Of a stretch of DNA of 64,000 nt, positions 360-45,200 are shown piece by piece (the first letter of the stretch is position 1; every line of letters starts with the position of its first letter). The stretch is from assembly GCF_026571515.1 (NCBI RefSeq), contig NW_026855598.1, positions 1-64,000 on the forward strand, given 5' to 3'. Below the pieces are notes generated by a model. The model was not told the origin of the DNA. It made no database searches and worked only from the letters and a program-made list of their open reading frames with translations. This stretch comes from Ruditapes philippinarum (lineage: Eukaryota). Made by a program: the position numbers and the translations under genes.

Positions 360-11131
<10,772 letters not shown>

Positions 11132-11618: not shown

Positions 11619-13372
11619 TTATGCCACCGCAGCATCTGCGATGCGGTGGCATATAGCGATTCACCTGTGTGTGTGTGTGTTTGTGTGTGTGTTTGTGTGT
11701 GTGTTATATAGATTATATAGTGAACTTAAAAAATCTTCTTGTGAAAAACCACTGGTCCAATTTCAACCAAACTTGGCAGGATTGTTCCTTGGGTGAAGGG
11801 CTTCCAAAGTTGTTCAAAGAATTTAATTCCATGCAGAAATCTGGTTGCCATGGCAACCAAAAGGAATTATAAGAATAAATTTAAAAAATCTTCTTGTAAA
11901 GACCCAAAAGGCCTAGAGCTTAGATATTTTGCATAAGGCATTGTCTGGTAGACCTCTAACAAGATTGTTCAAATTATAGCCTGGGGTCAAATTGGCCCCG
12001 CCCCGGGGGTCATTGATTTTCACTATATACATATAGTAAAAACTTAAAATACCTTCTTGTACAGACCAAAAGGCTAGAGCTTAGATATTTTGCATAAGGC
12101 ATCGTCTGGTAGACCCTTACCAAGATTGTTCAAATAATAGCCCTTGGGTCAAAATCGGCCCGTCCCGGGGTCATTGATTTTCACTATATGTACTTATAGA
12201 AAAAACTTAAAACACCTTCTTGTAAAGACCCAAAAGGCCTAGAGCTTAGATATTTTGCATAAGGCATTGTCTGGTAGACCTCTACCTAGATTGTTCAAAT
12301 TATAGCCCTGGGGTCAAAATCGGCCCCGCCCGGTGGTCATTGGTTTTCCATTATGCTATATTATATGTATATAGTAAAAACTTCAAAAAAATTCTTCTAG
12401 CAATTGACAAATGCTAGAGGTTAGATATTTTGCATGAAACATTGTGTAGTAAACCTCTAGCAAGATTGTTCAAATTATAGCCCTGGGGTCAAAATTGCCC
12501 CCTGCCCTGGGGTCATTGATTTCAATATATACATATAGTAAAAAAATCAAAGAATCTTATTGTCTGAAGGTACAAGGCGTAGAGCTTTAATATTTGTTAA
12601 ATAATATCATCTTAAGGTACTCTACAAAAGTTATTCAAATTTAGCCTCTTGTGTCAAAATTAGCCCCGCCCCGGGGGCCATATGTTTTCCTTATATGTAT
12701 ATAGTAAAAACTTAAAAAATCATCTTCTCTAAATTTACAAAGGCTAGAGTTAAGATATTTTGCATGAAACATTGTGTAGTGAACCTCTTGCAAGATTGTT
12801 AAAATTATAGCCCTGGGGTCAAAATTGGTTCTGCCCCGGGGGTCATTGATGATCATTATGTACATATAGTGAAAGAATAAAAAATATTTTTGTCTGAAGG
12901 TACAAGGCATAGAGCTTTGATGTTTGATATATAATATCATTTATAGGTCCTCTACCAAAGTTGTTAAAATTTTTCCCCTGGTGTCAAAATTGGCCCTGCC
13001 CGGGGGCAGTGATTCTCATTATGTACACATAGTAAAAACAGAAAATAAAACAAATGTTTTCTGAATGGGAGAAAGCTATAGCTTAGATATTTGACTTGAA
13101 ATGTTGTTTGGTGGACCTGTATCAAGATTGTTTTGAATTAAACCCTTGGGTCAAAATTATGCCTTGCCCAAGGGGACAGTGACCTACTTTCTTGTCCTTT
13201 AATGTACAGCAATGACATTTTGACCATGTGCACAGTTTTAGTTGTAAAATTGAACTTTGATATCAGGTGACCTAGATTTTGATGATGTAACCTACTTTCT
13301 TGTCCTTTGATGTACAGCTATGAAATTTGAACATTGCGGTGGCATAGCATTTTTCTCAAATGCAATCTTGTT
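11619..13372 (+). mobile_element. Helentron/DINE-like element with ~170-180-bp tandem array, nested in an older degenerate element (about 11268-13555)
   Basis: 5' ATGCCACCGCA with internal inverse TGCGGTGGCAT, (TG)n microsatellite, repeated units containing CCCTGGGGTCAAAATTGGCCCCGCCCC, 3' TGCGGTGGCAT and hairpin GCATTT..AAATGC. Confidence 0.85.
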
Positions 13373-15883: not shown

Positions 15884-18161
15884 TATTGAGTAATTTGTTA
15901 TAATTTTATTTTTTACTGACCACCGGAATGAACCAAATGGGACAGAATATCTGTATACCTGCTGGTTCAGTGTTGTATTGTCATCAATGGTGTGTCTTAA
16001 GTCTGTTTATACCATTTCTTTGTGTGTAGGTGGCAGCGGGAGGCAACAACAATATCATTCAAAACAACCCTTTGTAGCACAACACCCTCCTGAATAAGTC
16101 TTAACAGGTCAACAATCATCCCTGGTATTAGAATGCTTGACATTGACCTGCCATGAGCCTTTTAGGCAACATGTACCTCTTGGATTGAATTTGGAGAAGA
16201 TAATCGAGCAACTGTGAATAAAGACATTTGTTCTTGAGAAGTTTCTTAATGGTCTTTCTGTCTAACCATTTTGACACCAAACATTACCTAAAGTGAATAA
16301 AGTTTAGGCATGTTGGTTAAACTCATTTGCTCTCACCCTGATGATAGTCTGTTAGGGTAAGATGGGTTGTGAATAGCATTGTTTTATGGTTTGAAAAGTA
16401 TAAAGGTATGCTAATTTGAAATTATGGATTTACTCTTATATTGCGTTTGCTGACTAACAATAATTGCAGCATGTAATTTTACTGAATTACTTACCTTTGT
16501 TAACTTAAACTTTCTGCACGGCTCTTGCTGTAATGTTGCACACTATAAACACTATTACTTAATGATGTCATCTTCACAATCCCCAGATACCTTGCTTTCA
16601 TTATGGATTTTTAAATTCAATGATAAAGACTATTTTATATCCAGAGACAAATAAATTCAGAGTATAACAATGACTTGACCTTAGAAATACAATTTGTTTA
16701 TTGCATATAAACAGATATACATGTATATGTATTCTAATTCAGCTCCGTACTGTTGCTGTCTGGTTACCTCTTTCTTGTGTTTTTTTGTAAAGCTGTATTA
16801 ACACATTACTATGGTTTTAGAAAAAATAAGCCAGCTTTAAAAGCTTATTTACACGTAATAATTATGTATCCAGTGTTTTTTAACAGGACACACTGTACGA
16901 TTCTATTGTGGTTAATGGTACCTAAACTTTTCACAGATAATGTTAATCCGGTCCAGCTTTAAAGCTGTAGACAAACACTCTGATCAATATCCTCCTTTAA
17001 CTAGATATTTTTATCCGAAATGATCTGTCAATATTTATTTGCATCTGTATGCAATTGAAAGGTGTGTATTTCCTCTATCTTTTATGGTATTAAGAGACCA
17101 GATTACTTATAAATTTTTGATGTCAGACCTTTGTAGATGAGAAATGCTTATGTTTGAGAATTTCCTATAATTATGATTTTCAACTACTAGTATCTCTTCG
17201 AAATAGTGTACAGTTTTGAACTGTGATATACTCCCCGCTATATTGAAATTTGTTCTTGAATTTCTAATAGGTACAATGTGAAATTGGACTCGCAGCTTTA
17301 TACCATCATAGCGCAATGTTGGGCGCCAATGCCACAGAGAAAAAATATGAAAAATGAGAAAAATATGCAGTCTGACCAGAACTTGAAGGCTCAACAGCCG
17401 CTTACACACTATGTCTCTTTATTATACCCCCGCACAACAAAGTTGTAAGGGGGGTATACTGGAATCAGCTTGTTCATCCGGGCGTCTGTCGGTTTTTCCT
17501 TGTCCGTCCAATAACTTAAGATTCCTTTGACCCCACAGTCTTCATTTTTGGCAGGGAGGTTAGTCATGATGAGTAGATGACCCCTATTGATTTTGACTGG
17601 GTCAAGGTCACAGGGGCCTTGAGTAAAGCTTATCCACCCAATAACTTAAGATTCCTTTGACCCACAGTCTTCATATTTGGCATGGAGGATAGTCACGATG
17701 AGTAGATGACCCCTATTGATTTTGAGGTCACTGGGTCAAAGGTCAAGCAAGGTCAGACAGGCCTCGACTAAAAAAGCTTGTCTGCCCAATAACTTAATAT
17801 TCCTTTGACCCACTGTCTTCATATATGGCATGGAGGTTAGTCATGATTATTAGATTTCCCCTATTGATTTTGAGGTCAAAGGTCAAGGTCACACAGGCCT
17901 TCACTAAAAAAGGTCTTGTCTGCCTATTAACTTAAGAATCCTTTGACCCAGTCTTCATATTTGGTATTGAGGTTGTTTATGATTATTAGATGACCCCTTT
18001 TGATTTTGAGGTCACTGGGACCTTGACCTAAAAAAGCTTGTTGGCTCAATTGCTTAAGAATGCTTTGGTTAACAGTCTTTATATTTGGTATTGAGGTTGT
18101 TTATTACTAGATGACCCCTATTGATTCTTTTTCGCGAAAGAATTTCGTTTCGGGACTTACC

Positions 18162-18191
18162 TGAGATACGGTTGCGCATGCGCAGTTCACT
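18162..18191. repeat. DIRS left inverted terminal repeat core (partner at 22637-22666)
   Basis: TGAGATACGGTTGCGCATGCGCAGTTCACT is the exact reverse complement of AGTGAACTGCGCATGCGCAACCGTATCTCA. Confidence 0.92.
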
Positions 18192-18417
18192 TTCCCGGTT
18201 GCGTTTCACGCAGTGAAACACGTTTCGTATAATATTAAAAGTTTTATCGGTCGTAGATCGATATAAGTTTATCACTCTTTTTATTTCGAAGTTTATTCGA
18301 AATACAATGTACTAACTATTTCTATATTGTGTGTGGACGTAGTTCACATTATTGTGTTTTTTATCGTTGTTGAGAGGCGAATTTTCTCGATCGCACGTGG
18401 TGTGATCTTCGTAAATT

Positions 18418-19542
18418 ATGGCGGATGCCAAAGAAGCGAACAAAAAAGCTGCTGAAAGCAGCGGTTATGAAAAAACAAATAAAGGGAAAGCGCCGAAGAA
18501 AGCGTCAGAAAAGGTTCCCGAAAAAACTGCAAGTACAAGCTCGTCGAGTTTGGGCAAAACTTCTGAAGATAAAATTTTGTCTCTTCTGGAAATTATGAAA
18601 AGTTCGTTTGATCGCCAAATGCAGGAACAAAATACAAAAATTAACAGTTTAGCAAGTAAAGTTGACGATTATGAACAATATTATGAAGAGTATGATTATG
18701 ATGATGATTATGAGTCTGTGGACAATTTCCATCAGGATGATGATCAACCTGAGCAGAGTAAGAGAAAAAATGATGATGAGAATAATAATAGTAGATTTAA
18801 GAATATGGCAAAGCGTTTTAAGACCACAGAAACTTGTGATTCGAAAGTTGATTCTGTGTTAGCGTCAACTGTAAATGACTTATTTCTAAATGGACTTGAT
18901 GAGGATCATTATAATAAATTGACAAAAGATGAACTCAATGCTAGGCCTGAAAACTGTGAGGCTTTATCTGTGGTAAAAATGAACCAGTTAATATGGGACG
19001 CGGTTTCCCCAAATGCTAGAACGTCTGATAGGAAACTTCAATACATTGAAGAGTCGGTTAATTAAAAGTGGTACACTCTTAGTAAAAGTAGTCAATTGAG
19101 TTGGACAAATTAGATTCGGAGAATGATGGAAGCTTGGTCCCGTTGATAGAGCAGTGTAATGATGTCCTGACTTTGTTGGGTCATGCGAATAAGCCAAATT
19201 AATATGACCAGGAAAGACTTTCTTAGACCTGAAATGAGTAAGGAATACACTCATCTTTGTAGTCAATCTAGACCTTTTACAAAATTCTTATTTGGGGACG
19301 ATGTCTCCAAGTCGGCTAAGGAGATTGAGGACTGTTCCAAGATCAGTAATAAGATGTTTGATCGTAGACCTTTTCGAGGAGGTCCTGCCCGCCGAATGTT
19401 GAATAGAGGATTTCGTTTCCGAGGCGGTTATGGCCGAGGTATGAGACCGAGGGGCCGAGGTTTGTCGGATCCAAATGTTGGTACATCTACCGATTCAAAA
19501 AACTACCAGAGACGGGGGTCTCGGCTGCCATTCAAGCAGTAG
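18418..19542 (+). CDS. DIRS ORF1 (Gag-like), interrupted by three +1 insertions at about 19060, 19098 and 19194
   Basis: ORFs 18418-19065 and 19183-19542 share a frame. Removing three single extra bases gives the continuous read ESVIKSGTLLVKVVNELDKLDSENDGSLVPLIEQCNDVLTLLGHANKQINMTRKDFLRP...FLFGDDV. It also has a RPENC motif and an RG-rich C-terminus. Confidence 0.8.
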
Positions 19543-21593
19543 AGCAGGTAAATGATTATTTTCAAGCAGGTAGACTTGCAAATTTTGTTAACGAATGGGA
19601 AAATTTAACAAGTGACCCTCAAATTCTTGATATTGTTAAAAATTGTCATATTGATCTTCAAGTTAATAACTCTGGACAAAAATATTTTTCTCCTTGTCAG
19701 TATAAATTTGATACTTTTGAATGTCAACATATTGATAATGAAATCAAAAAGCTTCTAAAATTGAAAGTAATAGTGCCTGTTGAGGCAGAGAAAGGTCAAA
19801 TTTTATCACCAATATTTTTACGCCCTAAAAAGAACGGGGAATACAGATTGATTTTGAATTTGAAAAAAGTTAACACATTTATCCCTTATAAACATTTTAA
19901 AATGGACACTTTTGAAAAAGTTCTCACATTAATTTCACCAGGGGTAAAAATGGGATCAGTTGACATTCGTCATGCATACTATTCTATAAAGATTGCTGAA
20001 GAACAGCAAAAATGTTTTTGTTTCATTTGGCGTAAACAAATCTACCAGTATACCTGTTTAGCAAATGGCGTTAGTGAAGGCCCTCGTCTGTTTACGAAAC
20101 TTTTGAAACCAGTATATGCACGATTACGTAGTTTGGGCTATGTAAATTCTGGATTTATTGATGATAGTTTTTTGTTGGGTGATAGTTATAATGAATGTGA
20201 AGAAAATATCAAAGCCACTGTTAACTTAATGTTACAGGTAGGATTCATTATAAATGAAGAAAAGTCTGTATTAATTCCAACAACAAAATTACTTTACTTA
20301 GGGAACATAATTGATTCTGAAGGCATGGTAGTTACTTTGCCTAAAGAAAGACAAGATAAAATTGTTTTGGAATGTCAAAACTTATGTAATAAATCTGTAG
20401 CTTCAATAAGGCAGGTTGCAAAGGTTATTGGTTTGATAGTTGCAAGTTTTTCTGCAGTAGACTATGGGAAACTGCATTATCGACAATTAGAGTTGGCAAA
20501 AACATTTTATTTAAAGAAGAATTTTGGGAATTATAATGCTTTTATGCCAGTGACTGATAAAATGAGAACTGAACTAACTTGGTGGGTTAACAATTTGAGA
20601 CAACAATCACGATCAATAAATAGGTCAACCCCTAATACCATTATTGAAACGGATGCCTCGTTTCTTGGATGGGGGGCTAAATATAAAGATATTAGAACAG
20701 GCGGCAGATGGCTTGTTGAAGAAAAGCTTCTTAACATAAATGTATTGGAATTGTTAGCAATATTTTATGCATTACGATCGTTTCGAGAACATGTTGTTTC
20801 CCAGCATGTAAAAATAATGTCGGATAATACTACAGCTGTAAGTTATATCAATAATATGGGTGGAACTGTATCCTTACAGTGTAATAAGATTGCTGTTGAA
20901 ATTTGGACCTGGTGTATAGCTAATGACATATGGTTAACTGCTGCACATATTGCAGGCAAAGAAAATTTAGAGGCTGATCAGGCTTCTAGAAAATTTAAAG
21001 ATAATCTGGAATGGAAACTGGATGAGAAAATTTTTAATAAGATTTGTGATTTGTGGGGTACCCCAGATTTAGATTGTTTTGCATCTAGGTTAAATGCACA
21101 ATTAAAGAATTATTGCTCTTGGAAACCTGATCCAGATTGTATTTATGTTGATGCGTTTTCCATAGATTGGAAAATTGTGAATAATGTATATGTTTATCCT
21201 CCTTTCAGTCTGTTAGGAAGATGCGTGCAGAAAATGAGAAGAGATATGGCCAAGGGCATCATCATAGCTCCACTTTGGACAACTCAACCTTGGTTTCCAA
21301 GGCTTATGGACATATTGGTAGACACGCCAGTTATTATTCAAAAGAAGAAAGGTTTGCTGAAATTACCGCTTCAACAAATGTCTCATCCTCTCGAAGGCAG
21401 ACTCAGATTGATAGTTTGCAAAGTGTCAGGGATAGTTTCAGAAAACGTGGATTTTCAGAGGACTCTACCAGAATATTCATGTTGTCATGGAAATCAGGTA
21501 CTAAAAAACAGTATAATACACACATTACCAGGTGGTTTCGCTACTGTACTGAAAGGAAGATTACTCCAGTTTCGCCAACTTTGGAGGAAGTAG
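19497..21593 (+). CDS. DIRS ORF2: reverse transcriptase / RNase H / Dam-like methyltransferase domain
   Basis: Frame is open from 19407. RT motifs SPIFLRPKKNGEYRLILNLK, VDIRHAYY, GFIDDSFL; RNase H motifs ETDASFLGWGA, INVLELLAI, SDNTTAVSYIN, HIAGKENLEADQASR; MT motifs DLDCFAS, DAFSIDW, VYPPF, APLWTTQPWF. Confidence 0.93.
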   Translation, partial: KKLPETGVSAAIQAVEQVNDYFQAGRLANFVNEWENLTSDPQILDIVKNCHIDLQVNNSGQKYFSPCQYKFDTFECQHIDNEIKKLLKLKVIVPVEAEKGQILSPIFLRPKKNGEYRLILNLKKVNTFIPYKHFKMDTFEKVLTLISPGVKMGSVDIRHAYYSIKIAEEQQKCFCFIWRKQIYQYTCLANGVSEGPRLFTKLLKPVYARLRSLGYVNSGFIDDSFLLGDSYNECEENIKATVNLMLQVGFIINEEKSVLIPTTKLLYLGNIIDSEGMVVTLPKERQDKIVLECQNLCNKSVASIRQVAKVIGLIVASFSAVDYGKLHYRQLELAKTFYLKKNFGNYNAFMPVTDKMRTELTWWVNNLRQQSRSINRSTPNTIIETDASFLGWGAKYKDIRTGGRWLVEEKLLNINVLELLAIFYALRSFREHVVSQHVKIMSDNTTAVSYINNMGGTVSLQCNKIAVEIWTWCIANDIWLTAAHIAGKENLEADQASRKFKDNLEWKLDEKIFNKICDLWGTPDLDCFASRLNAQLKNYCSWKPDPDCIYVDAFSIDWKIVNNVYVYPPFSLLGRCVQKMRRDMAKGIIIAPLWTTQPWFPRLMDILVDTPVIIQKKKGLLKLPLQQMSHPLEGRLRLIVCKVSGIVSENVDFQRTLPEYSCCHGNQVLKNSIIHTLPGGFATVLKGRLLQFRQLWRK

Positions 21594-22396
21594 TTGAATT
21601 TTTAACAAATCAGTTTAACAAAGGTCTTGGTTATGAAAGTCTTAATACAGCTCGTGGTGCTCTATCTGCTCTTGGAATTCAATTTGAAGGATTTCGGATT
21701 GGAAATCATCCTTTAATAATAAGATTCATGAAAGGTGTATTTGCAGCCAGACCAACAAAATCACGTTATACTGAAGTTTGGGATGTGAATAAAGTTTTAA
21801 TTTATTTGAAAAAGCTTTCACCAGTAAGACATCTTTCACTGAAAAATCTCACATTGAAGCTGGTGATGCTCATGGCCCTAACTCAAGCTGCACGTGTACA
21901 GACATTACAATTAATTAGTTATACTGATTATAAGAAGTTAAAATCAGAGTTTGTGTTTAAATTTGATGGGCTGCTGAAGCACAACAGACCAAACCATAAC
22001 ATTAATTTTATTTCATTTAAGGCTTATCCTCCAGATAGGAGACTTTGTATATATACAGTGCTGAAGGAGTATTTGGCGCGTACAAGTAATGTTAGAATTG
22101 ACAATAATGCTAAGAAATTGTTATTAAGTTATGTTAAACCATATAAAAATGTTACAAAAGACACGATTTCTAGATGGATTAAAACTGTTATGTATAGATC
22201 TGGAATAAACATTGCGAAATATGGTTCTCATAGTGTGAGAGCAGCAGCAGCATCCAAGGCAAAGAATTCTGGAGTGCCTGTTGCAGTAATATTAGAGAAA
22301 GCTGGCTGGTCGTCAGAAAGCACATTTGCTAAATTCTATGATAAGGCAATAAACACGGGGAGAGACCCATTTCAAGAAGGTGTTTTGAGGCACTAG
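21221..22396 (+). CDS. DIRS ORF3: tyrosine recombinase
   Basis: Catalytic set present: R (AARVQTL), K (LKHNRP), HxxR (HSVR), W (AGWS), Y (KFYDK). Overlaps ORF2 by 373 bp in another frame. Confidence 0.93.
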   Translation: MRAENEKRYGQGHHHSSTLDNSTLVSKAYGHIGRHASYYSKEERFAEITASTNVSSSRRQTQIDSLQSVRDSFRKRGFSEDSTRIFMLSWKSGTKKQYNTHITRWFRYCTERKITPVSPTLEEVVEFLTNQFNKGLGYESLNTARGALSALGIQFEGFRIGNHPLIIRFMKGVFAARPTKSRYTEVWDVNKVLIYLKKLSPVRHLSLKNLTLKLVMLMALTQAARVQTLQLISYTDYKKLKSEFVFKFDGLLKHNRPNHNINFISFKAYPPDRRLCIYTVLKEYLARTSNVRIDNNAKKLLLSYVKPYKNVTKDTISRWIKTVMYRSGINIAKYGSHSVRAAAASKAKNSGVPVAVILEKAGWSSESTFAKFYDKAINTGRDPFQEGVLRH

Positions 22397-22428
22397 GACT
22401 AGGTGTTTTTTCGCATTAGGCTTTAAAG

Positions 22429-22555
22429 TCTCAGGTAAGTCCCGAAACGAAATTCTTTCGCGAAAAAGAATTTAAAAATTAAACGAGACTTACCTTGGTT
22501 AAGTTGAAGTTTGATTTCAATTCTTTGAGTAAGAATTGAGTGAGGGGCTTAACTG
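22429..22555. repeat. DIRS internal complementary region (ICR)
   Basis: 22429-22470 is the reverse complement of the left end 18125-18166; 22471-22555 is the reverse complement of the right end 22665-22749. Confidence 0.95.
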
Positions 22556-25500
22556 CCACCCTCCCTCCCTACAGGAATTTAAATTTAGAAAATACATTCT
22601 TATAATTGTTACTAATGGGAAAAAACACTGTTAAGGAGTGAACTGCGCATGCGCAACCGTATCTCAGTTAAGCCCCTCACTCAATTCTTACTCAAAGAAT
22701 TGAAATCAAACTTCAACTTAACCAAGGTAAGTCTCGTTTAATTTTTAAATTTTTAGGTGACTGTGTCAAAGGTCACATGGGCTTTTACAACAATAAGCTT
22801 GTCTGCTCAAATGTTTAAGGTCCTCAGTGTATTGATTTTGACATTTTCATATTTGAAGCATGTAGATTACATAACACCAATGCTTTGGCTTACTTACCTT
22901 AGCTTTGGCAGGGCTCTAAATGGCCACTGTTGATTCTGACAAAGTGGTATGAAGGGGTATTCACGCCAAGACAGTGGCAGTTCTAGTTAATGAACAGTTT
23001 TAAACTGTAACGTAATTGTGCATTGAATGTTGTTATCCATTTCCTTTATACATCTACTTAACAACCGCTCACAGGATGGTTTTAAGTAACCATCTACTGA
23101 ACTAATGTTATATATTATATTATAATAAGTGGTCATTTGAAGGCCACCTAATTTATCTCTAAAAATCATGTCAGAAACTTTGATGCCCAAAGCTGCAATT
23201 TGCTTGACACCAAATTTTATTACCTATCAAGTGTTAGAATATTTTTTAAATATTGATATACATCCTTACTACAAGTGTTACAGGCAATTGCTATACTTCC
23301 TGGTTTTATATACAAAAAGACTGTGCCATTACATTAGTTTCTAGAGTTAGCCAGAAAATAGCTCTAATCAATCTATTACTTCTTGCTTGTGGTTAACGGG
23401 ATTGTATAAGTTTTTACAATATGGCTACCCCTAATGATGGCAAGTTAGTTGGTCAACAAATAAACTAAAACAGAAGTCTAGTGTAGGAAAGCTGATTTTA
23501 TTACAAACAGGTTATATGGTTATATGATGGTTACAGTGAACTCTTAAACAAGTACAACAATGTGAAAACAGCAAACAGTAAACCTGGTGAAATTATTGCC
23601 CAGTAATTGTGAGCTACACTACTGAGGACAAAAGTCATGACCACAATGAAAACATAGAAACACTTTTATGGAACAAAAAAAGTATTTCCTCTAAGATCCT
23701 TGAATAAATATACAAAGAGGTGATTTTAAATAATGTCATCAGACTCGAAGAGACTGTTTCCTGTAAGTAAATAAAGAATTTTTACATAAAATGAACAACC
23801 ATTAACTACCCTGGGCAGGTGGATTTCAGGTTAAAAAAAAATACAAAAATATTAACTTGAAGGAATCAGAAACTAGGACAAGGTCTATGTACAGGATAAT
23901 TATACTGAAAAAATCTAAATAAACCTTTTTTGATAGCATTTGCTTTATTACAGACATGTTCATATTTGTCCTATTTTTTTTCAATAGAAGTCATTACATG
24001 TTTACACCAATATTATAATATTCCCCATTATTCCTATAAAGTAAAACTTACTTTAGACAGAACAAGTAAAACACAGAAAAAAATCCCAATACAAATAACC
24101 TCCCATATAAACTTTGCACACAGCATAAATGATTATATTAATATTACCATTTAATAAAACATCATTCCACAGAAAAAGAAAACAAACTTTATCATAACCC
24201 AATACACGACCATACAACATAAATCTGTAGAATAAAAGAAAATCTGAACCACTACTTATATCCCACTTTAAATATAACAGAAATATAACATTTTTATTTA
24301 TGACCCGCATTTCATTAAACATCTAACTTAAAAACTGTTCAAATGTTATAGCAAACAATATAAAAAAATTAATTAAATCATAATATAAAGTACCAGAAAA
24401 TCCCAACAAACCATGTACGAAGTAAACTAATGAAATAATCACCACATCTAAAACAATTCTTAATTTAGTTCTAATATTTCTTATGTAAATCTTATTTCAT
24501 TTTACATGAATACAAATAAATCATATTCTACATCTAATAGAAAAATCTTAAACAGAAGATCAGGGAAACAAATAAACAATCTAAAATGTCAGAATTTAAA
24601 TACAATATTTAAAACGGAGAAGATATAAAATCTGGCAAGAATTTTGTATACATGTGTATTTTTATATTGACATGGTATGTCAACTATATTTGTGCATATT
24701 ATATAATTTAATACTATATGTCTGTATATTTTGTTAACAGAATCATATCTGTGTCCCAATCATTATAAACAGTAAATTGAATTCTTATTATTATCAAGAA
24801 ATTTAGAAACATTTTTAACGGTATATGTATACAATTACAGATTTACTTAATATAAAATGTGATATAAAGCTGCAATTTAAATTTTATCAACCAAAAAATC
24901 GATCAGTCTCAGAATATGCTTTACACAGTACAAAAACTGCAGAGCAATTTAACAAAATAATGTGTATATAACAACTCCCCCATTGTCTTAAGCTTTAAGC
25001 CTAGTAAACTTATCATATAGGATTTAAAACATATCTGCACATAAAATTCTCAAGCCAAAATGTCAAAATTAATGTTAATTTTTAAAGTACATGTCCAATA
25101 ACTGGGTTCACATGTAAGTTTTGAAGTAAAAAGCACAAGATCAGTCAAATTGATGAATTTATAAACACAGCACACATGATTATATACAATACTACAAACT
25201 TTATAACAATTCTTAATAATAATATGTAAAATGTCTTTCATTTCTTATTTTACAGAATAAAATTATAGATTATTTTGCAAAGTCTTTTCAGCAAAATGTC
25301 TATATCAATAATGTTTGTTTTCTTAATGTCATTAACCATTCAATGTTGATTTACCATACTTAAGATAGAAATATAATATGAAATGGACGTCTGATTTACA
25401 GCAAACTGTGCAGAAAATGATCAAAATGACACTGGTTAATGTTAAAAGATATTTCATTTATAATCAATTCAAAATTATGAAAATTAATTACTATATACAC

Positions 25501-27294: not shown

Positions 27295-30200
27295 CTACAT
27301 TGACATAGACTTGAGAAAGGCATCTGCTGTAACAATCCTTCCAGTGTTTCCATAATCAGCCAACAATTTGGCCCACAATGCATCACATCGTAACAGCTCA
27401 TCATTACCTGAAATATAACAAGCAAATTCTTCTGTTACTGCTCGTGCATTGTTACATGAATTGTGAGTTCCTTAAGTTGTAAGGATATATATTTATAATA
27501 GCAATGATAGTTTAAATGATTAAATAAATCAGTAAAGATTACCTGCTACCTTGCCATGTTTGTATGAAATGTCTAGCTTTGAATTAAGAATTGTTAGGTT
27601 AAGTTTCTGGTATTTCATGAAAAACTACTAAAACTGAGCAACCATCAATAAAGGCAATTTCTTGTCTGACTGACCTAGCACTTGTGTTGTCATTTGTGCT
27701 GTCTAACCAGACTCTATACTGCTGACCTCTTAATTTCATCCTGAAATCACTTTAACTAACAATGGACTGGTCCAAACTCTAACTAGGAAAAGTCCATTTC
27801 ACACATTATGTAGAGTAAAGCTTAAATAGCATGCTTTTAACTTTTCAAATCATGTCATTTTGTAACAGTACATAATTTAAATTTATTACTATGTTAAACA
27901 AAGAAAGAAAAGAGTACATGTATTAGAATCAGCGAAACAAACTGTAGATGACTTACCAACAATGATCAGTCCTTTCTTGGCCCTTGTTAAAGCTGTAGTC
28001 ACTATAGCTTTATCAACAAGTTGACCTAGTTTTGACAACTTCCATTTCTTATCTGGATACCTTTCTATACTTGGATTTGCAACAGTTCTTACTGTACATA
28101 AGATCACGTAATCAAACTCTTTACCTGTAATACAAAAATATATATACATTACATAATAAATAAAGTACTCAATACAATTCTGTGACAACAATGATCCATT
28201 CTAAAAGAATTATGTTTTATTTATGATATTTTGAAACTTTACAAACAGATCTCACTTTATCTACAGACCTAAATGTTTATTTAATACAGGCTAACAAAAC
28301 ATATTGCTAAAGGTGAAGGATCCTTTCCAAAACTGCATGTTCAATGCAAATCATATAGGAAAATGTAAAAATCTATTTTAAGCATCAGTGACCTTGACCT
28401 TGATGCTGTGACCAAACACTCCTCAAAAGTTATAAGATCATCCATAACTACCAAACAAATACATAAGATAACAGTCAATAAATGAAGTTGCTACTGCAAA
28501 ACCATGGAAAAATTGAGTGAATTTCTTTTGGTAGAACACAAATGTACAGTATTAATTATTACCTTGTGACTCTTCAACTGTGAGACAAGAAGGTGTGTTT
28601 CCTACACTAGATAGTTTTTTGCTGATGATAACACGCTGGGCTCTAGTTGTACAGATTACTGCAACATTATTTGCTGGTACCTGGTAACTTGTTACTAATG
28701 CAACTGCAATCCTTACCTGTAAAACATATGAAATCAATTTAAATCATGTTAAAACAAGTAAGAACACATGGCAAAAATGTTCTTTTCTGTGAATTATCAC
28801 TTAAAGTTCATTGAGAAATATTTAAGACCTTATGCCTCTATCACTTTTATATACGGTAGAAAAATAAGATAAACAACAACAAATGCATAGGGCCTAAATT
28901 TTGCAAAAATGAATGATTTTAAAAACCCTGACAACATGCAAAGGGCACTTGCTGACAATAATTCTGTGAAGTTTTCAAATCCTGATAATATGTGCCAGGC
29001 ACTTGATGACGAATAGTTCTGTGAAAGATTGGTTCAAATCCTTTAAGACATGTAAAAAGAGTGGCATGTAGATAGAGATGTTTTCTACACATGTAAATAA
29101 AATTAACAACAAAGGGCCATTATTCTGCCAAAAAAATTAAAAGCAAAAATGTTTTAACTTCCTCATTAACCAAATGTTACCACAAGGTACTTACAGAAAA
29201 GTCAGCCTGATCAGTATTACATATAGAATGTTCCCTCTGTGAACTTAGATCAATGGCTTGAGTTCTCTCGGACCCCTTCAGTTTACAGAATGCCACTGGT
29301 TTAGTTCTTCCCGCTGGCCAGTTTAATATAGATGGCTGCCTCTGGTTCATTGTACCACACAATAAACGACCTTCATAACTATTCTTAGATGGAAAATCCA
29401 CAATACCTTCATGCTACAATTAAACATGATAACCTTATTCTTTTCTTCCTTAATATCCTCCAGATATGCCAATGTATTTCATTCAAATAAAACTTGAGAA
29501 AAATGTACTAAGAACTTAAGGAACTAAAAAGATTCAAGTCATAATTTACATGTAATGTGCTACTGACAACTGATTTTGCAGTCTTTATTACCATATTTCT
29601 ACTGGGTGATTATTGCAGTAAGGGATATTTTGGCATATTTTTATTTACCTAGGTTACAAGTTCCGTTTGCAATGTGTAAATTACTTTCTTTGTTAACTTC
29701 ACAATATTCTAATTTTACATACATTTTCAAAATTTTCATAAAAATTAGCATGAATCTTGAGGCATGCTGCTTTAACAACCAATTACAGGCCCCCATTAAT
29801 GAGTAATGCTGGTTTAATGCCATAATTTTAAAAAGATGAAAACTTCAAGACTAGGATGCTACTTACCACTCTATACTGTACATTTAAATACACAGCTAAA
29901 CTCAGGTAATCATTCATCAAGGAGCGTCCAAGTCCAAGGACTTTAGCAGCTTCATTAGTTACATGCGGACCTATCTGGTTAACATCTCCAATAATTGTAA
30001 CCTGGCTTGCTTCATTATACAGTGAAAGTGGAACCAATACCTCAAGCTCAGAACCAGAGTTAGCATCATCTATAATTATCTGTAATTTAGAACATTGTAT
30101 ATGTAATTTGATATAGCTCATTGAAAGTTTCATGTCACTCAGCAGCAGATTATTAGTTTCGCAGTTATGTTTTGCATTTCTAAAAGAATTCAGGACAGAA

Positions 30201-36200: not shown

Positions 36201-39200
36201 GCCCCATCAAGTACTTCAGCCTTACAGCCATCAGAATTTATATGAAGCTGGGTCCTTAGATATCTTGATTCATTAGTTAGTAATGTTCTTAGTTGTTTAT
36301 CATCATATGAGGGGTATATAGCTCCACTTTCTGTAAAGGCATTACTGCCTCCCCTAACTACAGCCTGTCCATTCTCCTCACATACAGTTATACTTTCCCT
36401 TGTAATGTTTCCATTACCTCCTGAATTACCATCTAACTTAATCAACTGGAGCAATACATCATCAGCATCTAATGTATACTCATCCCCTACTTCATAGTAA
36501 GATTCTACTGATACCCTCTTAGTTAAGGTAGATATAGGAGCTGGTGGCAGACCACGTGAGATTACTGATTTTAGTGGATTAAGGGGTGTAAGAGGACTTT
36601 TCATTACAGTACTAGTGCTACTAGTTACATTATTTCTTATAAATAATGTATCCTCTTCTTTACTTACAACATTCTGGTTCTTTCCTAGACCTAGTCCCAT
36701 AAAATTACCATCATTTAAACCAGATTCAATAGCCAACTGCCCATTATTAGATATAGTGTTGCTACTTGTATTGTGTACAAGAGATGCCAGTTTCTGTCCA
36801 CTCTGTCGTTCATTTGCTATCTGTAACAACCTCTCTCTGGCTGGAGAGTTCAATAGATTCTGCACCTGTTGTCTTATAGCATCAAATGTGTGATTCTGAG
36901 GATACAGGCTGCTCATGTTCTGACAGTGTTTGATGTAGGTACGCCACACATTAACACATTCCCCAACAGCACACAAAACAACAGGGTCACCTACTACCAC
37001 AACCAATGACTGGGCTCGTGTTAAAGCTGTGTTAAGAAGTTTTGAATCTGATAAGAAACCGAAGTCACCAGCTTCACCATCACAATCTGTTAGACCATGT
37101 TTTTGCACATGTTGGGCTTCAATAAGATGTCTTGTCCTTACTGTTGTTATAAACATAGCACGAAACTCTTTCCCTATTTGTAAAATAACAACAACAATAT
37201 TTCAACTGAATCATAAACATAATAATGCACATAATTTATTGCCACTACATTAACATGCAAAAATCAAATGTTTAAGGACACTTATTACATCAAAGAATGT
37301 CAGTATCAACATTAATTACATGATTTTCAGTAGACAATGACATTATAGTATGATAATTTCACATTGAAATTATAAAATATAATTTTCACAGTCGCTGGAT
37401 GATGAAAAGAATATATCATAATAAAGAAGAAATATATCAGAAAATACACATTGTCATAATTAAAATGTTCTTAATTACTAGGACATGAAAATTTGAAAAT
37501 GCAACAAAATTTGTGAAATTTTACAAAATTAATTTTCAACAAGAACAATGTGACAGCATGATTAGATTACGCCATGAATGAGAGCGCATGCTGTTCCAAA
37601 GAAATAATTGTAACAAGAGCTGTCGGAAGGACAGCAACGCTCGACTATTCTTAGTGCTTGATTGTAAAAAAAATGCTTGATACAGTTACCTCCTCCTGTT
37701 TACAGGTTGAGGTAATGATGGTGAACAAGTGTGCAAAGTTTCAAAGCCATATGTCAATGGACTTTGAAAATATTTGAGGTATTACGAAAACTTTAACATA
37801 AATTCTAAGTCGAAAAAAGGGGCATAATTCTGTCAAAATGATTGATACAGTTACCTCCTCCTGTTTACGGGTTGGGGTAATGATGGTCAACAAGTGTGCA
37901 AAGTTTAAAAGCCATAGGTCAATGGACTTTGAAAATATTTGAACTATTACAAAAACTTTAACGTAAATTCTAAGTCGAAAAAGGGGCATAATTCTGTCAA
38001 AATGCTTGATACAGTTACCTCCTCCTGTTTACAGGTTGGGGTAATGATGGTGAACAAGTGTGCAAAGTTTCAAAGCCATAGGTCAATGGACTTTGAAAAT
38101 ATTTAAACTATTACAAAAACTTTAACATAAGTGGTTACGCCGACGCCGACGCTCGGGTGACTACAATAGCTCCACTTATTCTTATCGAATAGTCGAGCTA
38201 AAAATACTAAATGCCCAAGTAAATAGAAATAATTTGTTACATAATTATTTGTTATGCATTTAAGATCAAATTATATTTCACTTGTGAATACCCAGCTCTT
38301 ATATCTTTCACATGAAAATATCAACACATAATTTCATGCAAAACAAATAATTATCCTCTATCAAATTACTTGTGATATCTTCACAATATGATTGATTCGG
38401 CATCATAATACAACATACATATGAATGTGTAATATTACCTTGTACACCTTGGACTCTCTCAACCACTACATCTTTCAATGCTACATTTCTCTTCTTCAAT
38501 GCTTTCCTTATCAAAATCACCTAAAATTTTCATAAAAAAATCTAAACATGTATCTTAGATTGTGAAACAATTTTTGCAGTTGTTATTATGCATAAATCAC
38601 TTCCAAGTTCCTGAAATAAACAAGTACTGGTGTCAAATTAAGAAACATGGTTTTAATCAAGACAGGGCTTGAATTCCATGATCTCAGTTGAGATGAAGAC
38701 ACCTTAACTAAAAGTTTTTATTCTCACTTGCACTAAACTTTCGATGTTATTCACTCACCAAAACAGGAATAACGAAATAACAAGACATTTTCTCACCTTG
38801 TACATACTTACTCTGTTCCTATTATGAACACAATTTTAAATAATTAAAATCTTAATATGTGATAAAGTATTAAATTATAACAAGAGGGCCATGATGGCCC
38901 TGAGGTCGCTTACCTGATAATAGGCCTCCCCCCCCCCCCCATGACAGGGCCAATTTTAGTCCAAGGGCTTTTATTTGAACAAACTTGGTAGACACTCATA
39001 AGAAGATGTTTCATGCTAAACATCTAAGCTCTGAGCTCATTGGGTTTTTCAAAGAAGATTTTTAAAGTTTTTACTATACACATATACAGTTGACTCTCAA
39101 TCAGTCAAAATCGCTTTACTCAAAATTCCGCCTTAGTCGAATAATTTCTAAAGTCCCGTCAAATTTCCTTCTTTATCTTTGTATTTTAACTCCGCTTATG

Positions 39201-42200
39201 TCAAATTTTGACTTACCGAGACTCCTGTTTAGTCGAAAAGAAAATTTGGTCCCGTCAATTAAAGTCCACATATTTTCATCTCAATTAGTCGAAGTGTGAA
39301 AACAGCCGACTGATCAAAGGTCGGCGACATCAAAGTGAGATGTTGTCACTCGTGATTTACACGTTTCATAGTAATTTTTAATTGCCGGTCATCATGTATT
39401 ATTAACATGTCGTAAAAGTGTCTTTAATCCGTTTCACGACTTAATTAGTTTTAACAGTTAGATAGCTAAATTAAAATTTAATTACATTTCTTTAACAAGA
39501 GGGCCATGATGGCCCTGAGGTCGCTCACCTGTATATAGCCCCCTACCCCCCCCCGGGCCAATTTTTACCCAAGGGCTTTTATTTGTTTATTTGAACAGAC
39601 TTGGTAGACACCCATAAGAAGATGTTTCATGCTAAACATCTAAGTTCTAGCTCATTGGGTTTTTTAAAAGAAGATTTTTAAAGGTTTTACTATACACATA
39701 TAGTTAAAAACAATGACACCCCTGGGGCAGGGCCAGTTTTGACCCCCGGACTTTTATTTGAACAAACTTTGTAGATATTTACTAAAAGATGTTTCATGCT
39801 TAATATCTAAACTCTAGCTATTTGGGTTTTTTCAAAGAAGATTTTTAAGTTTTTGCTATACACATATAAGGAAAATCAATGACCCCCCACCCCCCTGGGC
39901 GGGGCCAGTTTTGACCCCAGGGCTTTTATTTGTACATACTTGGTAGACACCCATTAGAACATGTTTCATGCTAAATATCTTAGCTATAGCTCTTTGAGTT
40001 CTTTAAAAGAAGATTTTTTGAGTTTTTACTATATGCATATAGGGAAAATCAATGACCCCCCGGGGCGGGGCCAATTTTGACCCCAGGGCTTTTATTTGAA
40101 CAAACTTGATAGACATTCACTAGAAGACGTTTCATGCCAAATATCTAAGCTCTAGCTCTTAAGGTTCTTTAAAAGAAGATTTTTTTAAGTTTTTACTATA
40201 TGCATATAGGGAAAATCAATGACCCCCCGGGGCGGGGCCAATTTTGACCCCAGGGCTTTTATTTGAACAAACTTGATAGACATTCACTAGAAGACGTTTC
40301 ATGCCAAATATCTAAGCTCTAGCTCTTAAGGTTCTTTAAAAGAAGATTTTTTTAAGTTTTTACTATATGCATATAGGGAAAATCAATGACCCCCCGGGGC
40401 GGGGCCAATTTTGACCCCAGGGCTTTTATTTGAACAAACTTGGTAGACACTCACTAGAAGATGTTTCATGCCAAATATCTTAGCTCTAGCTCTTTGGGTT
40501 CTTTAAAAGAAGATTTTTTAAGTTTTTACTATATGCATATAGGGAAAATCAATGACCCCCCGGGGCGGGGCCAATTTTGACCCCAGGGCTTTTATTTGAA
40601 CAAACTTGGTAGACACTCACTAGAAGATGTTTCATGCCAAATATCTTAGCTCTAGCTCTTTGGGTTCTTTAAAAGAAGATTTTTTAAGTTTTTACTATAT
40701 GCATATAGGGAAAATCAATGACCCCCTGGGGCGGGGCCAATTTTGACCCCAGGGCTTTTATTTGAACAAACTTGGTAGACACTCACTAGAAGATGTTTCA
40801 TGCCAAATTTTTTGAACAATTTTTAAAGGTGACCACCAAAGGAACATTCCTGTGAAGTTTGGATGAAATTGGCTCAGTGGTTTATGAGGAGATGTCATTT
40901 TAAGCAAAAGTTTACGGACAGACGCCGGACGGACGCCGGACGAAAAGCGATCACAAAAGCTCACCCTGTCACTTTGTGACAGGTGAGCTAAAAAGATTTA
41001 AAATAAAATACAATGAGTTAATATAATCTAAATAGCTCATAGAAATATTTGCTACCTGATCATAGTATGGTGTAACTACACCTATATCCTTGGCAGATGG
41101 AGTGCCCCATTCTTCTGGCCACTTGTCAAACAAATCATCCACCCTGTCCACCACTTCTTGTACCTCTGACATATTGTAGTAAGATATACTATTCTCGTCT
41201 TGAACTTCTCTGCCTTGTACAGCATAAAATGCCAGTGGAGTAATTGACAAAACAGATCTTATATTTGCCTCAGATTTTAAGACATCTGGCCCTCCATAGA
41301 ATACAGCTGAAATAAATCTCAATATCTCCATCTTAGTTCTGTAGTTGATACTAAGAAGTATATTCAATGGGCTGGTTTCCGGGATAAATGTAGAGTGGGA
41401 GTCATAATACTGGTGCAGTCTCTCCAATAATGACTGGTGTAGATTCTGGTTCCTAGCTTCTACACTGTACACCTTAGGACTGATCTGTCTATGGTCCCCG
41501 GCCAGCACTATACAGGTCTTATCTGTAGCCAGGGTAAGTGGCATGAGGCTTTCACTCTCCAAGGTCTGAGCTGCTTCATCTATAAATATGTGAGTAAACA
41601 TCCCTTGTAGACCAAGACTGAAATATATATAATATACACAAAATTACTGAAAACATTCACAATGTCATATTACATATAAATTAGTATAACTTACATACAA
41701 TTATAATGTTGATGAATGAAACAGTAAACTTCTATTATATCAATATTGCTTATGCTGATATATCATTATATCCATAAGTCTGCCATGGTTCCTATAATTT
41801 ATAATATAAGCTGCTTGGCATGTATCAATATCAAATGTATCAATATTTCAGATGTATCAATTCAGATATGTCAGTTACCCAAGCACACATATTTTACAAC
41901 TTAAATTGCTCTCAATGTTCAACAATTATCAGCTTGATTTAATAAAATAATGTAGAATATTGTCAAACGATACAATATAGTTTCATTACTATTATAGATG
42001 AAGTTATCTCAGGAACAAAATTTTTCCAGTGTTTAAATTTATACATGTATATGTAGCTATAAATGAACATGATTGTATCAGGTTTATAAATGACAGAACT
42101 GCCGATTTACTCAAATTTTCAACTAAAATTTGTTTTATACATCTTAAAAGAAACATGTATCAGTTAACTAAATGTAGAACAGAGGGTGGTAACAATATTT

Positions 42201-45200
42201 GGATGCATCAATATTGTTTAGCTTATCAGCTGAACATCAATTTAAGTAGAGTTTACAGTACAAATAATGAAATACTAACTTTGCAAGGACAAGAGATGTT
42301 GTAACCGTGACAATTACAACCCGACATTTCTCAATATCATCATGTGTTGGCATCTGGAAGGCATCACCATCAGGTGACAGAAGACAGTAGCTCTTTACTT
42401 GTGGTGTCACAGTAAATAACAGACGGTCCTTGAAATAAACACGCTTTACCAGAGCCTGATTACCTGATTTCTTCAAGAAAGTATCAAAATGCTTCACTAT
42501 ATACAGGTCAGCAGCACTGAAAATTATAATATCAATGTATGTTAAGTTTTCCATGATGGTCACCAATTATATGGGGGAAAAAAAGAGAAAAACCTTCATG
42601 TGTGTGATGATTTGAAACTCATGAATAAATATTATGCACATTAATTCAACAAAGTTTTTCAAAATAAATAATGCATATTTTGTTTCAACAATATATCTCT
42701 ATAATACAGTTACCTGTTAGACTGGGCACAAATAAGTATTCTTGTGTCTTTTGTTTCCTTCAATAGAACCATGGTAGCTTGAGCAATAGTCTCAGTTTTG
42801 CCCGTACCAAATGGTCCAAACAGAACAAATGGTGGAGTGTATCCTGTCCTTTCAGCTACAATATGCCGCACAGCAGACATCTGGTCGGGGTTTAATACAG
42901 ATGACCTATACAAGCAAAAGGCAATTTTAGTTAAAGCATTTCTTGAAAAAAAAATTAAATTTGAAATACCTAAATGCTGACTAACTTCCTATACATGTTA
43001 GTAATATATGCTCCATTTGAAGAAAAATACCCTAATGATGATGACAACCAATTATGAGAATATGACACAAAATACAAAAATTGTCTACATATGAGACTTG
43101 TCTTATGAGCTAAAATGAATACCACATTATAGCACTTAATATTCTCCTTTTTTAACAACATCCTACATTTTACTTTATGAGATGATCAACCATCTTTAGA
43201 AAAATGACGAATGTTCATTAAATGAATAAAAAACATCATCAAACTTACGAAATTCTGAGGTTGTGTTTCTCATTACGAAGTGGGTTGATCTTGGGGACAT
43301 CTGGAAACACAATCTCTGAGGAATGTAGTTGATCAATGGCATAATGCATGCGACAGAAAAATAGACGATCCATCTGGAATTGTATCTCTACATCAATACT
43401 AGTCCTTGGCTTTAATCCAAGCTGCTTTACACATTGAGGAGACAAGCATAGGTAAATAAAATCTCTGCCTCTTCCGTCAAATTCAAAGTTTTCTTTGTTT
43501 ACAATGGAAGCTTCATAGACGACCTTGCTGGAATCAGATCTGGGTGCTAGCAGTACTTTACGTACACTAGTAAGAATAAGTTTGCCAGCATCTGTATCCT
43601 CTGTCAAGTTCTCCTGTAAGGGAACTTTAGCAAACAATTCTCCAGCCATTGCAAATACATAAGTGGCTTCTTCTATGGCTTGTAAACACTCGATGGTCAC
43701 ACATAGGTTATAGCTGTAACATAAATATCTTAACTTAATATCATGGGCTACTGACGCTTTAAGTGTGCATGTTACATACTATATTACACACCACAACATT
43801 TTCTTAAGTTTAATGCTTTCATTAACACCACTATACTGCAATACAGGTGTAACTTTTCGTGACATCTTGATTTCAAGACACGTTAATAAACTATCTTTGC
43901 ACCACTTTAAGAAATAATTTTGGTGAAAAAGAAAAAACATAACTTCACTTGATGCTATAACCAGTCAATAAAGCAAAAGATAATTTTCTATAACTATGTA
44001 TACATTCTTTTATAAATTCAGGTGATTATACTGAATTACAGTTTTAACTATAACACTTGCATAATTCTAGATATTTTACTTAACAGTAACAAGATATGTT
44101 TGTAAAACATGTATGCCCCCTATCAGCAGCCAATTATTCATGTGATAAGGTAATTATGCATGACTTCTGACCCAGTGATCAAACAATTAATAAGGGTTAT
44201 CAAGTATCTACTGGTCATGACCTTGACCCCTTGACCCAAAACTCAATAGGGGTCATCTGCTGGTCAAGACCAATCATCATACAAAGTTTGAAGTTCCTAG
44301 GCCTAAGCGTTTTTAGTTAATTGATCAGAAACCGTTTTTACTTACAAGGTCAATGTGACCTTGACCTTTGACCTCTTGATCCCAAAATCGAAAGGGGTAT
44401 TCTGCTGGTCATGAAAAATCACCATACCAAGTTTGAAGTTCCTAGGCCTAAGCGTTTTTAAGTTATTGATCAGAAACCGTTTTTACTTACAAGGTCGATG
44501 TGACCTTGACCTTTGACCCTTGACCCAAAACTCAATAGGGGTCATCTGCTGGTCACCACCAATCATCATACAAAGTTTGAAGTTCCTAGGCCTAAGCGTT
44601 TTTAGTTAATTGATCGGAAACCGTTTTTTACCTACAAGGTCAATGTTTACATGACCTTTGACCCTTGACCCTAAAAACAATAGGTCATCTGCTGGTCATG
44701 ACCAATCACCATACCAAGTTTGAAGTTCCTAGGCCTAAGGGTTCTTAAGTTATTGATCGGAAAGCATTTTTACCTACAAGGTCAATGTGACTTGCCCTTT
44801 GACCCTTAATCCCCAAAATCAGTAGGGGTCATCTGCTGGTCATGACCAATCACCATACCAAGTTTGAAGTTCCTAGGCCTAAGAGTTCTTTAGTTATTGA
44901 TCGGAAACTGCTTTTACCTAAGAGGTCAATGTGACCTTGACCTTTGACCCTTGATCCCAAAATCAATAGGGGTCATCTACTGATCATGACCAATCACCAT
45001 ACCAAGTTTGAAGTCCTAGGCCTAAGGGTTCTTTAGTTATTGATCGGAAACTGTTTTTACCTAAGAGGTCAATGTGACCTTGACCTTTGATCATTTGACC
45101 CCAAAATCAATAGGGTCATCTACTGATCATGACCAATCACCATATCAAGTTTGAAGTCCCTAGGCCTAAGGGTTCTTTCGTTATTGATCGGAAACCGTTT

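Follow-up and report, generated by a model that had tools for sequence, protein, structure and literature searches.

Our analysis suggests that a DIRS1-like tyrosine-recombinase retrotransposon of Ruditapes philippinarum uses one programmed −1 frameshift to make both of its enzymes as Gag fusions, a reading to which we give a probability of about 0.78. The observed anatomy, conservation, reading register and splice phases, together with a splice joint found in two sets of contigs, lead us to infer ribosomal slippage at the end of gag and two fusion proteins. Since a splice donor in the phase of the Pol frame is joined to an acceptor in the frame of the tyrosine recombinase (YR), a single shift would likely give Gag-Pol from unspliced RNA and Gag-YR from spliced RNA. 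The majority of ribosomes would terminate at the gag stop (19542) and yield Gag; some would slip one base back on the heptamer A_AAA_AAC and then translate 15 codons of the Pol frame, up to 19547. On RNA that retains the intron, shifted ribosomes would continue into reverse transcriptase (RT), RNase H and methyltransferase (MT) to give a Gag-Pol of ~1,050 aa; on RNA spliced from 19547 to 21209, they would enter the recombinase to give a Gag-YR of ~770 aa. The amount of enzyme relative to Gag would be set by the frameshift rate and that of Pol relative to YR by the splicing ratio; Gag would carry both enzymes into the particle, and no encoded protease that might cleave the fusions was found. 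The features of the element in the window (the whole stretch of 64,000 nucleotides analysed, from contig NW_026855598.1) are as follows.

18124..22754, + strand: complete DIRS1-like tyrosine-recombinase retrotransposon, from the pattern of inverted terminal repeats (ITR) and internal complementary region (ICR), domains and two sister copies
18124..18191, + strand: left terminus and left ITR; 18124-18166 complementary to 22429-22471, 18152-18191 to 22637-22676
18418..19542, + strand: gag (ORF1), with an RG-rich tail, ending in S-K-N plus 12 residues; indels at 19058-19194 in the window copy
19407..21593, + strand: pol frame with RT, RNase H and Dam-like MT (Pfam); no ATG before 19902
19497..19503, + strand: candidate slippery heptamer A_AAA_AAC in −1 register; same run in sister copies, an in-register X_XXY_YYZ in related families
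19503..19547, + strand: 15-codon Pol-frame linker from shift site to splice donor, by frame arithmetic; predicted to be common to both fusion proteins
19509..19522, + strand: short hairpin GAGAC/GTCTC after a 5-nt spacer, a weak candidate stimulator (helix −5.9 kcal/mol)
19545..19553, + strand: 5′ splice donor CAG/GTAAAT, phase 0 of the Pol frame; joint in contigs
19548..21208, + strand: GT-AG intron of 1661 nt, predicted to be retained for Pol; joint present in X1 and X2 contigs
21193..21208, + strand: 3′ splice acceptor (pyrimidine tract and CAG) inside the YPPFS motif of MT, in phase 0 relative to the YR frame
21209..22396, + strand: YR exon, 395 codons counted from the acceptor
22429..22555, + strand: internal complementary region (lICR and rICR), from complementarity to both ends
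22637..22754, + strand: right ITR and right extension, from the complementarity pattern

The ITR/ICR complementarity within the element extends over 43 nt at 100%, 90 nt at 99% and 40 nt at 95%. Two sister copies with different flanks each carry 17 mismatches, and all three copies have ATT at both ends and unrelated flanking sequences. Pfam matches were obtained for RVT_1 (3e-13), RT_RNaseH (1e-4), Dam (1e-4) and Phage_integrase (6e-7), those of RT_RNaseH and Dam falling below the Pfam cut-offs; a scan of four frames returned no match to a DDE integrase or an aspartic protease at E <= 0.1. Gag has no Pfam match and was assigned from its position and its 74 homologues; among those of at least 280 aa, 48 of 58 carry [SPATV]KN within the last 45 residues. 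In the window copy, five single-base indels at 19058-19194 break gag; they are absent from both sister copies and from reads, and probably reflect misassembly or damage private to this copy. These indels and the splice donor at 19547/19548 are points that the earlier note had missed. A search among viral contigs found no relatives. The clam element resembles the DIRS1-like elements described by Piednoel et al. 2011 (PMC3266345) and Dictyostelium DIRS-1 (PMC7192593, PMC5633606), in the parts of these sources available to us, in its ITRs, right extension and ICR, in its gag, RT-RH-MT and YR, and in the ATT at both termini. It lacks the long pol/YR overlap, as the available part of PMC3266345 reports for molluscan DIRS1-like elements.

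Rechecking of the coordinates bore out the earlier description of the gag/pol overlap: the Pol frame extends from 19407, just behind a TAG at 19404-19406, to 21593 and is −1 relative to gag, which stops at TAG 19540-19542, and the gag codons TCA AAA AAC place A_AAA_AAC in −1 register. The first Pol-frame ATG, at 19902, indeed lies inside RT, downstream of the start of the RVT_1 match (ORF residue 140, ~19824); in an alignment, invariant RT residues sit upstream of this ATG, and its Met is replaced by Gln in four rows. MMTV and HTLV use A_AAA_AAC at gag-pro. In the parts of the sources available, this heptamer is ranked among the most shift-prone (PMC5009743), and U_UUU_UUA is the heptamer of HIV-1 (PMC4373837).

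Conservation of the heptamer, proposed earlier as a check, was found throughout the testable families. An X_XXY_YYZ heptamer lies in register within the gag/pol overlap in 33/33 own-genome families and in 31/31 families from metagenomes, against chance expectations of 4.7–5.9 and ~5, respectively; the families are mutually related, and these counts are thus not independent. The other two registers hold such a heptamer in 8 and 2 own-genome and in 6 and 2 metagenome families. Three main types switch among lineages—A_AAA_AAC/U, U_UUU_UUA and C_CCA_AAC—and for each type the preceding codon has a wobble base that fits the heptamer. A quick tree with 68 rows shows 9 changes of label and places L180 on a long branch. 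Synonymous codon choice alone would produce the heptamer 5–25% of the time per family; summed across 33 families, taken as independent, the log10 probabilities of these choices come to −31.5. Judged from these comparisons, the heptamer at this locus is more than chance, and the synonymous-codon test and the type switching indicate that it is conserved beyond the need of the protein. A different organisation was found in 6 of 45 own families, comprising two in-frame fusions, one in-frame stop and three +1 arrangements. The C_CCA_AAC lineage comprises 10 families and has a stop codon 0–9 nt behind the heptamer. The candidate signal for gag-to-pol −1 frameshifting is thereby strongly supported by family comparison; the earlier proposal that the shift makes Gag-Pol is nevertheless incomplete, as the splice likely lets the same shift feed the recombinase too.

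The part assigned earlier to downstream RNA structure fared less uniformly. The hairpin at 19509-19522 has the 5-nt spacer and appears in the minimum free energy (MFE) fold, as does a second hairpin, at 19524-19540, but the first is weak (z −1.13; 27 of 200 shuffles fold equally well) and is not kept pair for pair among families, because sister family L057 forms a hairpin there in another register. MFE z-scores over the 60 nt past the heptamer gave no conserved structure (group means −0.40, −0.38 and −0.02). The plain MFE test overlooked stems with long loops, which a helix-start profile picked up: for helices starting 7–11 nt past the heptamer, a spacer window picked after the sequences had been inspected, the mean is −5.2 in A_AAA families (−2.1 shuffled) and −7.6 in U_UUU families (−2.5 shuffled), with 0 of 200 shuffles as low in either group. 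Such helices may act as stimulators. A helix at spacer 4–10 is missing in 8 of 22 A_AAA families, the profile gave no stem signal in the C_CCA lineage, and Rfam returned two weak matches only, far under the gathering score.

The donor cut at 19547/19548 lies 44 nt past the heptamer and 5 nt past the gag stop, and the intron takes out RT, RNase H and most of MT. The intron was predicted first, and a 1661-nt skip with GT..AG ends then appeared in the contigs of X1 and X2, two runs belonging to separate studies; the joint is thus present in two of the four runs compared, and X1 and X2 are RNA by guess only. Contig depths over exon, intron and exon are 54/34/65 and 11.6/7.2/11.2 in X1 and X2, respectively. 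The GT..AG ends, the pyrimidine tract and the joint are those of a U2-type spliceosomal intron, with the RNA status of the runs guessed. No joint was found among 978 reads on the element in X21, a raw run labelled as RNA; loose GATC ends and even cover of both strands suggest that X21 is a DNA/Hi-C library. Run X23 gave 10 reads at the element ends only, leaving the interior uncovered, and none of the listed runs containing the element is recorded as RNA. The assembly matches include no intron-less DNA copy. Two matches that begin at the acceptor were considered as such copies and rejected; they are decayed, carry an internal deletion (19253-20568) and retain sequence upstream of the acceptor.

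The splice sites were compared among the families as well. Relative to the Pol frame, a phase-0 donor was found in 33/33 own-genome and 29/31 metagenome families, and the acceptor serine codon is AGY in 22/22 families against a background of 26%. Families of the C_CCA_AAC lineage have their acceptor further downstream, at an arginine codon (AGR in 10/10); phase 0 of the YR frame is kept there and the serine of PPFS is relaxed. Of 31 metagenome families, 7 have no AG at the PPFS site.

It is conceivable, if unlikely, that the frameshift serves Gag-Pol only, and that translation of YR from spliced RNA begins at an AUG of its own past the gag stop, through reinitiation or leaky scanning. Reinitiation is possible in the family of the window element because an in-frame YR ATG (21221) lies 12 nt past the acceptor and, on spliced RNA, 17 nt past the gag stop; the first ATG past the gag stop in this family is in the YR frame. 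The latter is true of 8 of 32 families, which does not exceed the one third expected by chance, and the ATG at 21221 is not conserved among families. Moreover, the first Met of 12 of the 32 full-length YR frames follows an invariant Trp of the N-terminal domain, so that a start there would cut this conserved domain; the position of the Met is not fixed, ranging from 4 to 220 codons past the acceptor; and reinitiation offers no reason for the phase-0 donor in 62 of 64 families.

Ribosomal slippage also has to be weighed against routes that bridge or bypass the frames by other means. Polymerase slippage, with an extra base in some transcripts, might draw on the six-base runs of A_AAA_AAC and U_UUU_UUA, and slippage during transcription is treated as another route in the available part of PMC5009743; we nonetheless consider it very improbable, given that the 10 C_CCA_AAC families lack a long run yet keep the X_XXY_YYZ form for tRNA re-pairing, that the run is always in the tandem-slip register, that the stem sits at ribosome spacing, and that no insertion at the run is listed in reads or contigs, although contigs drop rare variants. 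Equally improbable in our view is a start of Pol and YR at internal AUG or non-AUG codons of subgenomic RNAs, with the heptamer reflecting S/P/A-K-N, a peptide conserved in Gag. KN is a motif conserved in the protein, and transcript starts are invisible in contigs; the peptide, however, varies by lineage (K-N, F-L, P-N) while the nucleotide form stays, the synonymous choices are improbable as calculated above, and translation from the first ATG would leave the RT domain incomplete. Finally, the −1 offset could be an assembly or mutational indel in the A-run, gag and pol truly forming one frame, as they do in the distant families L061 and L070; the window copy does have other gag indels. This explanation is refuted for the family of the window element and has next to no probability, since the A-run is identical in both sister copies, reads and contigs list no indel in it and the offset is common to 64 families.

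Frameshifting by ribosomes at gag would place the clam element beside retroviruses and LTR retrotransposons, with which it shares an X_XXY_YYZ at the gag end, a start-less pol in the −1 frame and, in many cases, a stem 5–11 nt downstream; unlike them, it encodes no protease or integrase. Its donor lies within tens of bases of the shift, so a shifted ribosome can enter either of two enzymes, and we know of no retroviral precedent for a frameshift that feeds two enzymes through a nearby splice donor. Spliced subgenomic RNAs are used by other retroelements for retroviral env, foamy-virus pol and Drosophila copia gag, where, as proposed here, the ratio of the proteins is governed by splicing only part of the genomic RNA pool. 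Those RNAs use an AUG of their own or encode a truncated polyprotein, whereas the clam YR exon is mostly AUG-less and would be in frame only after the −1 shift. For Ngaro, a −1 frameshift from RT/RH into YR has been proposed (Poulter and Butler 2015, quoted in the available part of PMC13003380); there too, a YR retrotransposon would reach its recombinase by frameshifting, but in another superfamily, at a pol/YR overlap and without a splice, whereas the clam element would shift from gag to pol and reach YR by splicing out pol. We found no report of frameshift-splice coupling in DIRS in the literature searched; Poulter and Butler 2015 or Poulter and Goodwin 2005 may already suggest gag-pol frameshifting.

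In the available parts of the DIRS1-like accounts (PMC3266345, PMC7192593, PMC5633606), ORFs are described and no expression mechanism for pol or YR, slippery site or intron is given; the proposal thus offers a specific answer, with exact coordinates, to how the start-less RT and recombinase frames are expressed, which the DIRS literature, as far as available to us, leaves unexplained. Through it, the set of candidate natural −1 frameshift sites grows by 64, with three main types of heptamer and with stem-less C_CCA_AAC sites among them; it also describes a frameshift whose product would be selected by alternative splicing. We consider it likely, with somewhat less confidence than for the clam element itself, that invertebrate DIRS1-like elements have a −1 shift at the gag end wired to a splice switch (Gag-Pol unspliced, Gag-recombinase spliced), and that this arrangement has persisted through replacements of the slippery sequence and of the acceptor during evolution. 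If this is true, gene models of DIRS pol and YR that begin at the first ATG are truncated, and both DIRS enzymes would act as uncleaved Gag fusions.

The DIRS1-like element at 18124-22754 (forward strand) carries the sequence signature of a −1 ribosomal frameshift between gag and pol, and we put the probability that its Gag-Pol is made by a −1 slip at about 0.88. The start of the Pol frame, the −1 offset, the slippery heptamer and the ATG at about 19902 proposed in the earlier note were each borne out by reading 17500-24500 with its stop-to-stop frames. That ATG, the first of the Pol frame, falls past the start of the RT profile (~19824). The features are as follows:

18124-18191, forward strand, inverted repeat
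22429-22555, forward strand, inverted repeat
22637-22754, forward strand, inverted repeat
19407-21593, forward strand, Pol frame (stop to stop), −1 to gag
19497-19503, forward strand, heptamer A_AAA_AAC in the tandem-slip register
19540-19542, forward strand, gag stop TAG (stop-to-stop frame)

The repeats form the ITR/ICR/right-extension pattern that the available part of PMC3266345 gives for DIRS1-like elements; Pfam matched RT, RNase H, the Dam-like domain and the tyrosine recombinase in the element, and no protease or integrase. Recent movement of the family follows from two sister copies, each at 17 mismatches from the window copy and each set in different flanking sequence. Five single-base indels in the window gag (19058-19194) are absent from the sister copies and aligned reads and leave the gag/pol overlap untouched; an annotated gag homologue of Ruditapes philippinarum is 97% identical to the window gag.

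Conservation of the heptamer argues for the frameshift reading. Sixty loci from 150 listed RT matches in the clam genome, mostly picked for long open frames, were grouped at 80% RT identity into 45 families, the most distant sharing 32% with the window family. Of these, 33 show the −1 arrangement, with a gag frame of at least 100 aa stopping where pol begins. In every one of the 33 the overlap contains an in-register heptamer X_XXY_YYZ, with A or U as Y and any base but G as Z (9 A_AAA_AAC/U, 14 U_UUU_UUA, 10 C_CCA_AAC), against a background expectation of 4.7-5.9 and counts of 8 and 2 in the other registers. A metagenome scan of 80 loci, 73 of which had a match reaching the Pol N-terminus and were retained, gave 40 families; 31 of the 32 with a gag frame have the −1 arrangement, and all 31 carry the heptamer in register (other registers 6 and 2, expected 4.7-5.9). 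Probabilities computed from such counts assume independence and are overstated, because the families are kin; more weight attaches to the switches of type. On a quick tree built from 68 RT rows, the heptamer types require nine changes, which implies that the heptamer was replaced more than once, its type differing between lineages while its form was kept. Among Gag homologues of at least 280 aa, 48 of 58 have [SPATV]KN within the last 45 residues (upstream windows, 0 and 2); named proteins of Pinctada, Mercenaria and the brachiopod Lingula are among them.

Among the other clam families, L060 and L100 retain an in-register heptamer beside a broken gag, L080, L087 and L104 have U_UUU_UUA in indel-damaged copies, and L094 is truncated. 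Six of the 45 are real exceptions to the −1 arrangement. Gag and pol are fused in one frame, with no heptamer, in L061 (G000:C7715) and L070 (G000:C14485); both have a phase-1 donor in an AGR motif, and in L061 its joining to the acceptor in the methyltransferase motif PPFS would end the frame at once, giving copia-like free Gag. The single-copy L093 (G000:C10240) has the two genes in one frame split by a lone in-frame UGA-C and keeps a phase-0 donor, possibly a switch from frameshift to readthrough. L111, L113 and L114 are a separate lineage with pol in the +1 frame, a long gag-frame ORF3 of ~960 codons immediately past a single UGA-C stop (oriented position ~1760), and a strong donor 4 nt past the gag stop in Pol phase 0; readthrough plus splicing possibly expresses them.

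Both hairpins that the earlier note placed downstream appear in the MFE fold of the overlap region, but this fold is no better than shuffles (z −1.13; 27/200 as good), and an MFE test of the 60 nt 3′ of the heptamer gave no signal. A profile of helices by start position, run after G-rich and C-rich arms had been spotted by eye, showed that in both the A_AAA and the U_UUU group the best single helix peaks 7-11 nt past the heptamer (0/200 shuffles of the 3′ region as good in each). Helices of −7 kcal/mol or below occur in 8/22 and 20/32 families, respectively (shuffles 1.4 and 3.3), with arms in both orientations and loops of 3 to >60 nt. A stem is enriched in these two groups and absent from the C_CCA group (58/200 shuffles); at 5 bp and −5.9 kcal/mol, the window hairpin is one of the weaker cases. 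The gag stop in the C_CCA group lies 0-9 nt past the heptamer, and pausing there is our guess.

In every inspected family the alignments place a donor-like sequence just past the stop codon of gag. The intron end at 21208 was predicted from sequence ahead of RNA inspection. A GT..AG intron of 1661 nt (19548-21208) is the one long skip in the coding region among four aligned sequencing runs; it occurs in contigs from X1 and X2, runs from two studies that we took, by guess, for RNA. The contigs of these two runs sum to 207 and 161 million letters (vs 1,074-1,551 in three other matching runs), sizes that fit transcriptomes. Depths of 54/34/65 and 11.6/7.2/11.2 (exon/intron/exon) suggest a spliced share of roughly one third to one half, although contig depth measures this poorly. 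The joint is absent from 978 reads of the raw run X21; these reads, on 18050-22850, have loose ends with GATC and even two-strand cover, and X21 looks like a DNA/Hi-C library despite its RNA-Seq label. Run X23 does not cover the element. No intron-less DNA copy was found among assembly matches.

The donor cut leaves the Pol-frame codon 19545-19547 intact, and the YR exon likewise starts with a complete codon, at 21209. In a weight-table search for donors from −3 to +60 nt around the gag stop, 33/33 clam and 29/31 metagenome families have their first donor past the stop in Pol phase 0. The acceptor is embedded in PPFS, whose serine is AGT/AGC in 22/22 clam families vs 26% in the RT body; AG stands there in 24/31 metagenome families. 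In the C_CCA lineage this serine varies and the YR frame is closed; an acceptor-like site lies ~90-130 nt further downstream (Arg AGG/AGA, 10/10), again in YR phase 0. The definition of the site partly sets the YR phase, but YR frames extend 345-406 codons from the acceptor. In several families the frame opens exactly at the acceptor, whose TAG is also the last stop in the YR frame. A general AUG start for YR was rejected: in 12/32 frames the first YR Met lies beyond an invariant Trp in the N-terminal domain, and the YR frame holds the first ATG past the gag stop in 8/32.

Other observations concern the surroundings. All three near-identical copies (window 18124/22754; L055, L056) show a terminal ATT, then a short T/C run and AG, resembling an intron 3′ end; a target preference is possible from these three sites. 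The window copy lies inside a ~145-bp tandem repeat; arrays with repeat units of 145 and 165 bp occupy 7144-7723, 11860-13182, 37649-40864, 44228-46404 and 49488-51067. The decayed copies L195 and L196 share an internal deletion (window 19253-20568), keep both ends and are a non-autonomous derivative. A minus-strand frame at 27889-28200, probably a host exon, contains TALTRAKKGLIIVG, which we take to resemble the C-terminal motif of UPF1/DNA2-type helicases.

We found no way other than the −1 slip for a ribosome starting at the gag AUG to enter the Pol frame, the frame in which the YR exon lies after splicing; one slip would therefore likely yield Gag-Pol or Gag-YR, according to splicing. Gag itself would come from both unspliced and spliced RNA, because the donor is 3′ of the gag stop. 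The donor lies 2-44 nt past that stop, a range partly forced by the search window, and falls inside the junction-dependent decay limit of 50-55 nt after a stop. The sequence features, their conservation, the phases and the splice joint are observed; from them we infer slippage, the fusion proteins, their ratios and packaging, and consider one slip feeding two enzymes a likely account of the window family. In the literature as partly available we found no report of a slippery site or internal splice in DIRS1-like elements, and the first 300,000 of 449,034 characters of a frameshifting review (PMC5009743) do not mention DIRS. The available part of PMC13003380 quotes Poulter and Butler 2015 on frameshifting proposed for Ngaro from RT/RH to YR, and an earlier mention for DIRS in that work is possible. 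A single slip at the end of gag, leading to Gag-Pol from unspliced and Gag-YR from spliced RNA, would be a variation on mechanisms already known.
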